Shown here: one piece after another, positions 3,081 through 6,273 of the stretch
Position numbering within the stretch: the first letter of the stretch is position 1
Layout: every line of letters begins with the position of its first letter
Origin: Candidatus Odinarchaeota archaeon
GTDB taxonomy: Archaea > Asgardarchaeota > Odinarchaeia > Odinarchaeales > Odinarchaeaceae
NCBI GenBank assembly: GCA_038826135.1
Contig: JAWBON010000068.1
Span: forward strand, 1 to 6,273
Length of the DNA stretch: 6,273 nucleotides
Direction of reading: 5' to 3'
Notes under the pieces: generated by a model
Told to the model about the DNA's origin: nothing
Database searches by the model: none
What the model saw: the letters and a program-made list of their open reading frames with translations, nothing else
Program-made: the position numbers and the translations under genes

Positions 3081-3099
3081 TTAAAAAGCTGTTTTTTAA
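3081..3099. promoter_or_regulatory. AT-rich palindrome TTAAAAA-N5-TTTTTAA between the tRNA 3' end and the aspartate kinase start; could be a TATA element, oligo-T terminator or operator
   Basis: The + strand 3081-3099 is ttaaaaa gctgt tttttaa. On the minus strand it supplies TTTTTAA 26-20 nt upstream of the kinase ATG and a T5 run 14 nt after the tRNA CCA. Function not established. Confidence 0.35.
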
Positions 3100-3131
3100 A
3101 TGGTGGGAGCGATGGGATTCGGACCCATGAC

Positions 3132-3151
3132 CTCCGGTTGATATCTTTAAT
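3132..3151 (-). other. tRNA intron 3 (20 nt, non-canonical position 45/46, variable loop)
   Basis: CCGG AA|A TT AAAGATATC AA CCGG AG|G TC. Central helix CCGG/CCGG, 3-nt bulges AAA and AGG, inner helix TT/AA. The outer helix is only a G-U pair, so this is a relaxed BHB. Confidence 0.85.
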
Positions 3152-3159
3152 TTCCGGCT

Positions 3160-3194
3160 TTCTCAGAGTGTTGCTCTTGTGAAGAGCGCGGTCG
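3160..3194 (-). other. tRNA intron 2 (35 nt, canonical position 37/38)
   Basis: Strict BHB. Outer helix CCGGC/GCCGG, central helix CUUA/UGAG (one U-G pair), bulges UA|C and AA|A, inner helix GA/UC, plus internal hairpin GCUCUU-CAC-AAGAGC. Confidence 0.9.
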
Positions 3195-3211
3195 TATAAG
3201 GCCGGCGCTCT

Positions 3212-3228
3212 TTCTGGATCTCTATGTT
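3212..3228 (-). other. tRNA intron 1 (17 nt, non-canonical position 20a/21, D-loop)
   Basis: CTGG TT|A ACATAGAGAT CCAG AA|A GAGC. Central helix CUGG/CCAG with 3-nt bulges UUA and AAA. The flanking helices are weak (relaxed BHB or bulge-helix-loop). Removal restores GCUC-AGCCUGGUUA-GAGC. Confidence 0.87.
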
Positions 3229-3278
3229 AACCAGGCTGAGCTACGCTCCCACACTATTACTAATGGTTATCTAAACAT

Positions 3279-3293
3279 TTTTTAAATATTTAG
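3279..3293 (-). promoter_or_regulatory. Putative archaeal BRE/TATA promoter of the tRNA gene
   Basis: The minus strand reads CTAAATA-TTTAAAAA, with the TATA-like octamer 36-29 nt upstream of tRNA G1. This implies a leader of about 5-8 nt. The AT-rich background lowers specificity. Confidence 0.45.
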
Positions 3294-3298
3294 GTATA

Positions 3299-6256
3299 TT
3301 AACTTGCCCGTTTAAAGAACACTGTCACGTCTTCCCCACTGATATTAAATTTGCTATTAGTATATTCTTCTAGCTTGTTTTCAGCTTCGCTTAATATTTT
3401 CAAGGATACTGCGTTGACTTTGCCTAGTAGCTGGTCTTGAAAAGCCTGAACAGATTCAACTATTAGATTGCTCTTAGTTACTATTTGAAGGATGATTTTC
3501 TCGCTGACATGGTAATTGTTTTGTTTACGAGCGAATTGTATTCTTCTTACAAGTTCTCTTAATATTCTCTCTTTGGCAAGATCCTGGTCTTCGGTTATGT
3601 CTAAATATATTTTATACTCTTTCAAATCCTTTGATTTAAGCCCCTTCCCACTTATCTGCTGATCTGAGACGATAACTTCTTTAACATTCACCATGGATTT
3701 TATGATAGACAATACCTCTTCATTGAATTGAATATTCTGAGATACGATTATTAATTTTCTACATGGCCATCTCAACTTAACATTGTTTTCCTGTCTTAAA
3801 GCTAGACTGTTTTCAATTATCTGTTCAGCTTTCTCCATATTCTGTTCAAGCAGTGTGTCTATTAATTTTTCATCCACATTAGGCCAATCGTTAAGGTGAA
3901 TACTTTCAGGAGCTTCAGGGTTCACGGTTTTAACAAGATAATTATAGATGTAATCTGTTATGAACGGTGTTATTGGTGCCATAATTCTTAGAAGACGCTC
4001 TAATACATAGTAGAGTGTTGATAAAGCGACTGTTTTAGATTCTAAATTCTCCGGGGTTGTCACTCTGTCACGTATGATCTTAATATACCAGTGGCTTAGA
4101 TCATCCATTATAAACTTTTGAAGAAGCCTAGGTATCTGCGGTATAGAGTAGTCTTTGAACACGTCGTTTATTTTTTTAATTAGACTGTTTATTCTTGAAA
4201 TAATCCATTTATCTTCAATCCTTAAAGATAATGTATTCAATGTTTTTGCAGGTTTGAAACCGACTATCTTCATAAAGGTTGTAGCGTAAATATAAGTGTT
4301 ATAGAATATGTTTATTATTCGATCCACGTCACCGATCTCTTTCCAATTGAATTTCATATCTAATCCTGGCTCAGCTGAGCCTAAACAGTAGAATCTAAAG
4401 GTGTCAACGCCGTATTTTTCTGTAACTGTTTCTGGTAGTATAATGTTTCCCAGAGACTTACTCATTGGTTTACCCTCAGGGTCGTTTACGAATCCGTGCA
4501 TGTAAACCGCGTTATAAGGGCATTTTTTGAAGGCGGCTGCGCCTAGACTCATCATCGTGTTAAACCAGCCTCTTATCTGGTCTTTACCTTCTAAAACAAG
4601 GTCGGCGCTTCTCCATTCACTATATGCGGAAGTATCTAACATTGCGGGCAGTGAAGCCCATACAACTGAGCCGCTGTCCACCCACACGTCTAAAACATCC
4701 GGGACTCTTTTCTTCCAGCCACCGCATTCACAACACCATTTTAATTCATCAACCCATGGACGATGCAAGTCATCTGGATGAATACCTGTCTTCTCCTCTA
4801 ATTCTTTAATCGAACCTATAACATCCACACTACCGCATTTATCGCATACCCATACTGGTAGAGGCGTACCCCAATATCTTTGTCTTGAAATACACCAGTC
4901 TTGAACACTTTCCAACCATTTATCAAACCATGGGTTACCAGCCCATTTAGGCGTCCACTCAACTTTAGAGTTTAGAGCACGCATTTCATCAGATAATTTA
5001 CTTATATTAATAAACCACTGTTCAACAGCACGATATATTAGAGGGTTTTTACATCTCCAGCAGTGTGCGTACTCGTGTTCAATCTCACCCTCGTATAAAA
5101 GCAGGTTTTTCCTTCTAAGATCCTTCAGTATTTCTATACTCGCATCTTTAACATGCATTCCAGCATATTTACCTGCTTCAACGGTCATTTTACCTGACTC
5201 GTCTACTGGGGAAAACGCGGGTAAACCGTATTTTGAACCTACTATGAAGTCTTCAGGTCCGTGGCCTGGTGCTGTGTGAACACAGCCTGTGCCCTGCTCC
5301 AGAGTTACGTATTCGTCGCTTAAAATTATTTTATGAGCGTTACTGTAAACTTTACCGAGCTCTTTTTGAAATGGGACCTCTTCTAATAGGCAGTGAACAT
5401 AAGATAAGCCTTGCAGTTTATCTCCTGGAAGCTCCTCCAGAATTTCAAAATTTTTTCCGAGCAGACCTTGTATGATGGATACAGCCATTCCCTTAGCTAG
5501 GATCCAGGTTTCATCCCCCACCTTCGCTCTTATATATGTGTAGAAGGGGTTAACCATTACCGCTATATTAGCTGGCAGCGTCCAGGGTGTTGTAGTCCAG
5601 ATCAATATGTATGTGTTTTTTTCACCGGCTAGTTTAAACTTTACAAAAATAGAGTAATCTGACACAGTCTTATACTCGTATTCGTGTTTAGCTAAAGCAG
5701 TCTCACAACGAGGGCAGAAGGCTAAAGGTCTTAGCCCCTTGTATAAGAGGTTGTTATCATATATTTTTTTTAATCCAAACCAGACCCCTTCAATATACTC
5801 GTTTGTGAGCGTCATGTAAGGTTTATTCCAGTTCATCGCCACGCCGAGTTTTTTAAACTGCTCTGTCATTTTATCTAGATTTTTTAAAGCAAATTCTCTA
5901 CATTTTGAAGTGAATTCGGCTATTCCCTTAGATTCGATGCTTTTCTTATCTTGAATTTTCAATTCCTTTTCAACTTTCACCTCTATCGGTAGTCCATGCA
6001 TATCAAAACCCGGTGTATCCATTACACGGTGACCCGCCATTCTTTTATACCTTAAAATAACGTCTTTCAAAATTTTATTCCAGGCAGTACCTAAGTGTAT
6101 CACACCAGTTGTATAGGGCGGGCCGTCTATAAATAAAAATTCAGGCTTATTCCTAGTGCGCTTACACAGCTTATCATATACTTTGTTTTCCTCCCAGAAA
6201 CTGTATATTTGCTGTTCAATTATTTTTTTCGAATATGTTTTAGGAAGCTCTTCCAT
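3299..6256 (-). CDS. ileS: Isoleucyl-tRNA synthetase, archaeal/eukaryal (type 2)
   Basis: Motifs: DGPPY-x-x-G-x-x-HLGT (HIGH), GFDMHGLPIE, CPRC zinc knuckle, CP1 editing motifs WTTTPWTLPAN and GTGCVHTAPGHG-x-EDF, DWCISRQRYWG, DVW-x-DSG, EGKDQ-x-RGWF, PMSKSLGN (KMSKS) and anticodon-binding LSHWYIKIIRDR. The ATG at 6256 is preferred (985 aa), because the GTG at 6265 used by the ORF track is part of a GGTG SD spaced 6 nt from this ATG. Confidence 0.97.
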   Translation of the reverse strand: MEELPKTYSKKIIEQQIYSFWEENKVYDKLCKRTRNKPEFLFIDGPPYTTGVIHLGTAWNKILKDVILRYKRMAGHRVMDTPGFDMHGLPIEVKVEKELKIQDKKSIESKGIAEFTSKCREFALKNLDKMTEQFKKLGVAMNWNKPYMTLTNEYIEGVWFGLKKIYDNNLLYKGLRPLAFCPRCETALAKHEYEYKTVSDYSIFVKFKLAGEKNTYILIWTTTPWTLPANIAVMVNPFYTYIRAKVGDETWILAKGMAVSIIQGLLGKNFEILEELPGDKLQGLSYVHCLLEEVPFQKELGKVYSNAHKIILSDEYVTLEQGTGCVHTAPGHGPEDFIVGSKYGLPAFSPVDESGKMTVEAGKYAGMHVKDASIEILKDLRRKNLLLYEGEIEHEYAHCWRCKNPLIYRAVEQWFINISKLSDEMRALNSKVEWTPKWAGNPWFDKWLESVQDWCISRQRYWGTPLPVWVCDKCGSVDVIGSIKELEEKTGIHPDDLHRPWVDELKWCCECGGWKKRVPDVLDVWVDSGSVVWASLPAMLDTSAYSEWRSADLVLEGKDQIRGWFNTMMSLGAAAFKKCPYNAVYMHGFVNDPEGKPMSKSLGNIILPETVTEKYGVDTFRFYCLGSAEPGLDMKFNWKEIGDVDRIINIFYNTYIYATTFMKIVGFKPAKTLNTLSLRIEDKWIISRINSLIKKINDVFKDYSIPQIPRLLQKFIMDDLSHWYIKIIRDRVTTPENLESKTVALSTLYYVLERLLRIMAPITPFITDYIYNYLVKTVNPEAPESIHLNDWPNVDEKLIDTLLEQNMEKAEQIIENSLALRQENNVKLRWPCRKLIIVSQNIQFNEEVLSIIKSMVNVKEVIVSDQQISGKGLKSKDLKEYKIYLDITEDQDLAKERILRELVRRIQFARKQNNYHVSEKIILQIVTKSNLIVESVQAFQDQLLGKVNAVSLKILSEAENKLEEYTNSKFNISGEDVTVFFKRAS

Positions 6257-6262
6257 TTTTAA

Positions 6263-6266
6263 CACC
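6263..6266 (-). promoter_or_regulatory. Shine-Dalgarno-like GGTG for ileS
   Basis: The minus strand reads CGGTG-TTAAAA-ATG, matching the geometry seen before the OsmC-like gene. Confidence 0.6.
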
Positions 6267-6273
6267 GCTACCG

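Follow-up and report, generated by a model that had tools for sequence, protein, structure and literature searches.

A tRNA-Ile(UAU) gene with three BHB-type introns behind ileS in an Odinarchaeia archaeon

Introduction

In archaea, the splicing endonuclease cleaves two 3-nt bulges, which flank a 4-bp helix, each behind its second base; a known instance of this cutting rule is the anticodon-intron pair located three bases ahead of the 3′ site. In Thermoproteales, the enzyme (EndA) belongs to the (alpha-beta)2 class and carries a Crenarchaea-specific loop; Sugahara et al. reportedly described in 2008 that tRNAs of this group contain up to three bulge-helix-bulge (BHB) introns, at non-canonical sites and with relaxed motifs. 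The AUA decoder of most archaea is an agmatidine-CAU tRNA, the modification being made by TiaS.

An encoded UAU anticodon represents another solution to AUA reading. tRNA-Ile(UAU) without TiaS has been found in Nanoarchaeum equitans, Korarchaeum cryptofilum and ARMAN-2, -4 and -5; the genes of Korarchaeum and ARMAN-2 contain a 37/38 intron, and the ARMAN-2 precursor is cut in vitro by its own EndA (PMC3239211, PMC6000648). The nuclear tRNA-Ile(UAU) of Cyanidioschyzon merolae has three introns, situated in its D-arm, anticodon arm and T-arm, and the 37/38 intron of yeast tRNA-Ile(UAU) is required to form pseudouridines 34 and 36 and prevents Elongator from making ncm5U34 (PMC9602550). In the Asgard lineages Atabey- and Freyarchaeia, 92–95% of tRNA genes are interrupted, and more than half of all tRNA genes contain several introns (PMC11291895). 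Asgard tRNAs can carry up to five introns per gene, and their D-arm introns are missed by tRNAscan-SE; the name Odinarchaeia is absent from the main text of the 2026 preprint that reports this (bioRxiv 10.64898/2026.10.13.758758).

Here, we analyse a stretch of 6,273 nt (the window) that constitutes an entire 6.3-kb contig of a MAG of 1.26 Mb (105 contigs, 38% G+C, 93% complete). It contains a real and complete tRNA-Ile(UAU) gene with three BHB-type introns. The observations taken together are very probably explained by a functional AUA-tRNA gene, transcribed as a precursor of ~150 nt, whose three protein-spliced introns are removed stepwise and whose product is probably the sole AUA decoder of the cell.

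Results

Structure of the gene and its splice junctions

The coordinates of all features are collected in Table 1. On the unspliced DNA, the Rfam tRNA model matches positions 3250 to 3104 of the minus strand with 43.6 bits (E 5.7e-07) and requires insertions of 24 and 56 nt, and ARAGORN calls no tRNA, with or without its intron mode. Excision of 17 + 35 + 20 nt (72 nt in total) leaves 78 nt, in which ARAGORN recognizes tRNA-Ile(tat) with a full cloverleaf and four perfect stems. The spliced 78-mer has a 10-nt D-loop, a 7-nt anticodon loop CUUAUAA that includes U33 and A37, a 5-nt variable loop and A73.

Table 1 Features of the tRNA-Ile(UAU) locus in the window. Cuts predicted after the second bulge base are marked by ^
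Feature	Position	Strand	Length	Description
tRNA-Ile(UAU) gene, complete	3101–3250	minus	150 nt	Four exons and three introns; Rfam RF00005, ARAGORN on spliced 78-mer, blind intron search
Exon 1	3229–3250	minus		nt 1–20a: acceptor and D-stem 5′ strands, most of D-loop; invariant in four Odinarchaeia genomes
Intron 1	3212–3228 (gene positions 23–39)	minus	17 nt	D-loop, 20a/21; helix CTGG/CCAG, bulges TT^A and AA^A; flanking helices of 1 bp each; relaxed
Exon 2	3195–3211	minus		nt 21–37: D-stem 3′ strand, anticodon-stem 5′ strand; anticodon UAU at 3196–3198
Intron 2	3160–3194 (gene positions 57–91)	minus	35 nt	Canonical position 37/38; helix CTTA/TGAG with one G-U, bulges TA^C and AA^A; outer helix formed by the anticodon stem, inner one of 2 bp; strict hBHBh′
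Exon 3	3152–3159	minus	8 nt	AGCCGGAA; nt 38–45: anticodon-stem 3′ strand and first two variable-loop bases
Intron 3	3132–3151 (gene positions 100–119)	minus	20 nt	Variable loop, 45/46; helix CCGG/CCGG, bulges AA^A and AG^G; flanking helices of 1–2 bp; relaxed
Exon 4	3101–3131	minus		nt 46–76: variable-loop end, T-arm (T-loop UCCGAAU, C55 at 3122), acceptor 3′ strand, A73, CCA
Encoded 3′ CCA	3101–3103	minus		
ileS (isoleucyl-tRNA synthetase)	3299–6271	minus		Directly upstream; 5′ end off contig; Pfam tRNA-synt_1 (1.8e-124) and Anticodon_1
Intergenic block (presumed promoter)	3261–3300	minus		ileS stop to tRNA; A/T-rich TATA-like box at 3278–3291, ~34 nt upstream of tRNA nt 1
T5 run (presumed terminator)	3083–3087	minus		14 nt past CCA; T6 run at the same place in orthologues

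The intron boundaries were also searched by a blind procedure, in which all BHB candidates within the 150 nt were enumerated, up to three to four of them were excised, and the products were judged by ARAGORN or by a cloverleaf score. The top solution consists of exactly these three introns, and the same search on the two exon-identical orthologues (L001 and L073) returns the identical three introns and the same 78-mer. Blind search and ARAGORN thus agree with the original prediction of a 78-nt cloverleaf interrupted at 20a/21, 37/38 and 45/46 by introns that make up 72 of the 150 nt, including the 8-nt exon between the second and the third of them.

At each of the three junctions, a central helix of 4 bp separates two 3-nt bulges, with the predicted cuts after the second bulge base; this geometry, also part of the original prediction, is identical in four genomes. 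When the introns were shuffled (20,000 trials), the helix core was retained in 0.9%, 0.6% and 0.3% of cases for introns 1, 2 and 3, respectively, and all three cores together in none (chance below 1e-6). Since introns 1 and 3 are flanked by helices of only 1–2 bp, their motifs are relaxed and their cleavage hinges on an assumed broad-specificity enzyme.

An alternative parsing of the same DNA has two introns, the D-loop intron and a single insert of ~56 nt after A37, so that the second CCGG (3134–3137) forms the anticodon-stem 3′ strand and AGGUC the variable loop. This arrangement matches the cmscan alignment, and the Hermodarchaeia orthologue has AGGUC as its variable loop. It creates, however, a C31-A39 mismatch that is flagged as non-canonical in cmscan, its junctions possess neither a 4-bp helix nor a pair of 3-nt bulges when checked by hand, the blind search does not rank it, and the 8-nt block AGCCGGAA is conserved next to intron loops that vary. 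Because of the mismatch and the lack of a BHB motif, we reject this parsing as very unlikely and retain three introns.

The tRNA gene starts 48 nt downstream of the ileS stop. All 40 bases of the block from 3261 to 3300 are identical across three Odinarchaeia genomes, the introns being less conserved; judged by this sequence and its TATA-like box, the block is presumed to be the promoter of tRNA-Ile(UAU), and the T5 run on the other side is presumed to be an archaeal terminator.

The D-arm and the unusual C55 T-loop of tRNA-Ile(UAU) are common to the tRNA-Ile(GAU) of the same genome (C16:21581-21684). C55 is present in both isoleucine tRNAs (UCCGAAU in the UAU and UCCAAAU in the GAU isoacceptor), and all other framed tRNAs of this genome have the universal U55. 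In the Hermodarchaeia orthologue, U56 occurs together with A19, which resembles tertiary-pair covariation.

Host and conservation of the gene

The closest relatives of the window's ileS are those of Candidatus Odinarchaeota MAGs (79–80% identity), which places the host in Odinarchaeia (Asgard) and not in Thermoproteales; it is a hot-spring archaeon and probably thermophilic. Of the original proposal that the host might lie outside Thermoproteales and thereby extend the range of triple-intron tRNAs, the first part stands and the second had been established before, by published multi-intron Asgard tRNAs.

Two further Odinarchaeota MAGs and a closed congeneric genome of 1,418,269 bp contain this gene in the same ileS context, interrupted by the same three introns. 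Comparison of the four genomes reveals 1 variable column among the 78 of the exons vs 20 among the 72 of the introns (Fisher p = 1.4e-6, a value that overstates independence because the genomes are close kin). The only variable exon column is an A45 to U change in exon 3 of one genome (G001). Within the introns, the helix and bulge cores vary in 1 of 21 columns and the remainder in 19 of 51 (p = 0.004, with independence likewise overstated by kinship); in intron 1, for instance, the core is fixed and the loop part varies. Near-invariant exons and drifting introns in several assemblies are the pattern expected of spliced introns, and they rule out that chimeric inserts arose by misassembly or misbinning. 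The setting of the window, a whole short contig from a MAG of 105 contigs, would be compatible with such an artefact, but three further assemblies, among them a genome closed into one contig, carry this three-intron gene in its ileS context, so that we assign this explanation a negligible probability.

Insertions at these three sites also occur in a second Odinarchaeia family of the same order (G034; ileS 56% identical). The automated junction search was unsuccessful on this genome; checked by hand, its introns 1 and 2 form helices with 4/4 pairs, and no helix was found at the third junction.

At least five Asgard families keep tRNA-Ile(UAU) directly behind ileS; outside Odinarchaeia, this arrangement is found in Hermod-, Atabey- and Borrarchaeia, with intron sets that partly differ. 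The Hermodarchaeia-type orthologue contains two introns, at 29/30 and 37/38. In the Borrarchaeia orthologue, four inserts are seen by eye, including one of 29 nt in the T-loop (L012/L105). The Atabeyarchaeia-1 orthologue (L093/L108; G012:C1, ~36840-37100) apparently contains at least five inserts, of which two lie in the D-loop region. A search for BHB junctions in the Borr- and Atabeyarchaeia orthologues gave no solution, and their extra inserts are described by eye only. For Atabeyarchaeota_2, tRNA 1 (Ile TAT, 35441-35652) is listed with two introns and designated ‘possible pseudo’ by tRNAscan-SE (PMC11291895, Supplementary Data 4). This entry is a direct orthologue (our locus L002), in which we see by eye additional inserts in the D-loop and variable region beyond the two published introns.

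Mutually exclusive splice motifs and alternative precursor folds

The 5′ strand of the intron 3 helix consists of tRNA nt 40–43, i.e. of the anticodon-stem 3′ strand. Because the anticodon stem at the same time represents the outer helix of the intron 2 motif, the motifs of introns 2 and 3 are mutually exclusive and the three cannot form at once. Calculated at 37 °C for a host that is probably thermophilic, the minimum-free-energy fold of the precursor has −47.5 kcal/mol and the fold with an enforced cloverleaf −46.1 kcal/mol. The former (fold A) contains the intron 1 and intron 3 motifs together with a hairpin in which exon 2 pairs with intron 2 nt 1–12; the latter (fold B), which is nearly isoenergetic, combines the cloverleaf with the intron 1 and intron 2 motifs. 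Given two folds with mutually exclusive motifs, we infer that splicing proceeds stepwise and through at least two folds. That introns 1 and 3 are spliced ahead of intron 2 is only suggested by this modelling.

The pairing of exon 2 with intron 2 can be followed in other genomes. Intron 2 nt 6–12 (3183–3189) are complementary to tRNA nt 27–21 (3205–3211) on the minus strand. Within this stretch, tRNA nt 21–26 comprise the D-stem 3′ strand together with nt 21 and 26. We counted the intron-exon pairs by script, MAFFT having left the Hermodarchaeia exon segment out of register: nt 21–26 pair with intron nt 12–7 in 71 of 72 cells from 12 distinct orthologues, compared to 28–44 of 72 at registers shifted by 1–3 nt. 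Across the Odin-, Hermod-, Atabey- and Borrarchaeia orthologues, the helix is maintained by compensatory changes, with double changes at 21:12 (A-U to G-C), 22:11 (G-C to A-U) and 23:10 (A-U to G-C), and Atabeyarchaeia-1 as well as the second family of Odinarchaeia show the same pairing of nt 21–26 with intron nt 12–7. RNAalifold, applied to six sequences, prefers the hairpin of exon 2 with intron 2 over the anticodon stem. Six other canonical introns of the same genome have no comparable exon-intron pairing.

A possible, though rather doubtful, interpretation is that this ‘anti-exon’ helix of intron 2 directs the precursor into an alternative fold that would serve at least one of the following roles: (i) introns 1 and 3 would be spliced first and the canonical intron last, (ii) the unfinished tRNA would be kept out of its L-shape until splicing is complete, or (iii) U34 would be presented or shielded, as it is by the yeast tRNA-Ile(UAU) intron against Elongator. 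Elp3 is encoded in the host genome. Intron 2 was also considered as a box C/D guide and rejected; it has a CUGA but lacks a C box, and its 35 nt are too few.

Splicing machinery of the host

Both subunits of a splicing endonuclease are encoded in the genome. The gene of EndA alpha, which retains the catalytic Tyr and His, is split across two contigs (C48:1-420 and C72:2-274). The two translations overlap by ~43 residues, which indicates that the contigs abut in the real genome. The best solved relative of EndA alpha is the alpha subunit of Aeropyrum pernix (3P1Z_B), with an alignment that spans the Crenarchaea-specific (L1) loop; other solved relatives are the catalytic alphas of Sulfolobus tokodaii and Pyrobaculum aerophilum. 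A second EndA protein of 185 aa, encoded on contig C45, has Ala where the M. jannaschii enzyme has its catalytic His and is therefore assigned as the structural beta subunit. A catalytic alpha with L1 loop and a beta without this His point to an (alpha-beta)2 splicing endonuclease, an assignment in line with the L1-loop-containing (alpha-beta)2 EndA described for Asgard archaea, Odinarchaeota LCB_4 included (PMC5829648). The original prediction had called for a broad-specificity endonuclease, and classification of the EndA subunits yields a type that, by the substrate range of its relatives (PMC5829648), should be able to cut relaxed motifs.

The ligase RtcB is encoded at C16:2586-5357 as one open frame of 995 aa. 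Its Pfam match is broken by ~470 residues between model positions 50 and 49, which looks like an intein.

With these components, maturation could proceed as follows. Transcription from the gene's own promoter just behind ileS would yield the ~150-nt precursor, the (alpha-beta)2 endonuclease would cleave all six 3-nt bulges behind their second base, and RtcB would ligate the four exons to a 78-nt tRNA that already bears CCA.

AUA decoding and the distribution of TiaS

Of the 177 Ile codons in the window's four ORFs, 95 are AUA, which is the commonest Ile codon there. TiaS (PF08489) was not found in the host genome (93% complete) or in three congeners, one of which is closed; control genomes were positive in the same search. 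Nor did the draft genome, whose tRNA inventory is incomplete, reveal a credible gene for a tRNA with CAU anticodon, the Met tRNAs included. The designation of tRNA-Ile(UAU) as the only AUA decoder of the cell, which we consider probable, follows from the missing TiaS; it is the lack of TiaS, and not the tRNA inventory, that speaks against a hidden tRNA-Ile2(CAU). On contig C11 (~26802, minus strand), a candidate CAU anticodon arm is preceded by the T-arm-like GGAGATTCGAATACTCC, which may represent a permuted or disrupted tRNA or a chance match.

In a decaying, non-functional pseudogene the inserts would never be excised. Such a reading could appeal to the ‘possible pseudo’ call for the Atabeyarchaeia-2 orthologue by tRNAscan-SE (PMC11291895) and to the low score or missing call given by standard tools. 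It conflicts with essentially invariant exons beside drifting introns, with a place behind ileS that is held across Asgard families, and with a codon usage dominated by AUA where TiaS is not found; we consider a pseudogene highly improbable and a functional tRNA-Ile(UAU) gene the appropriate description.

We sampled 121 Asgard genomes and searched for tRNA-Ile(UAU) by a pattern of UAU loop and canonical-intron start, by a covariance model and by direct inspection. TiaS is present in 70 of the 121 genomes, with a patchy distribution by family, and is missing from whole families. tRNA-Ile(UAU) was found in 17 genomes from five families, all of them TiaS-negative, and in none of the 70 TiaS-positive genomes. 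Every tRNA-Ile(UAU) found in this sample contains the 37/38 intron. The same searches detected no UAU gene in the TiaS-negative families f9 (26 genomes) and f19; in one f9 genome (G038), ileS itself gave no match at 1e-50. Matches of the pattern CCTTATAYGRNNNCGCT in three TiaS-positive genomes lie in coding DNA and were discarded as tRNAs.

Detection by annotation tools

Standard finders overlook the gene, as had been anticipated: next to the missing ARAGORN call, a whole-genome Rfam pass lists 29 tRNAs without tRNA-Ile(UAU), and cmscan misses it in both exon-identical orthologues (L001 and L073). The tRNA for AUA, the main Ile codon, is thus invisible to common finders in an AT-rich genome, and an essential decoder would seem to be missing from routinely annotated Odinarchaeia.

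In a rough genome-wide census, 6 of 35 framed tRNA genes are of uninterrupted length and ~29 exceed the length of a mature tRNA; almost all encode CCA. Four of the other genes have clean two-intron solutions. About 10 genes have no clean intron solution, including the long ones at C7:10222-10389, C75:2840-3018 and C11:25651-25779, and we therefore do not claim that tRNA-Ile(UAU) is the only three-intron tRNA of this genome. In several tRNA genes of the genome, the canonical intron is accompanied by another insert within or close to the variable loop (~45/46).

Discussion

The gene described here is a clean example of the published phenomenon of multi-intron tRNAs in Asgard archaea and not a new kind of element. 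Like those tRNAs, whose genes frequently have two or more introns, it is interrupted by BHB introns at the canonical position and elsewhere, among them a D-arm intron of the kind that annotators miss; what distinguishes the Odinarchaeia copy is that its three introns are cleanly resolved. Its main value lies in annotation, and the intron-exon helix constitutes a modestly novel structural lead: mutually exclusive splice motifs together with a covarying intron-exon helix provide a concrete and testable case of stepwise tRNA splicing.

With the triple-intron tRNAs of Thermoproteales, the gene shares intron number, non-canonical sites, relaxed motifs and EndA type; the phylum differs (Asgard vs Thermoproteota). 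The encoded UAU anticodon is shared with the TiaS-less archaea, whose genes have one intron where the Odinarchaeia gene has three. Unlike the genes of Nanoarchaeum, Korarchaeum and ARMAN, the Odinarchaeia tRNA-Ile(UAU) is linked to ileS and common to several Asgard families.

The gene of C. merolae encodes the same isoacceptor and also has three introns, but its third intron is located in the T-arm and that of Odinarchaeia in the variable loop, and we do not claim homology of the introns. In both C. merolae and yeast, tRNA-Ile(UAU) is a eukaryotic gene that is matured by eukaryotic processing enzymes. The Asgard tRNA-Ile(UAU) genes found in our sample have a 37/38 intron, as in eukaryotes, and this comparison bears on the origin of eukaryotic AUA reading.
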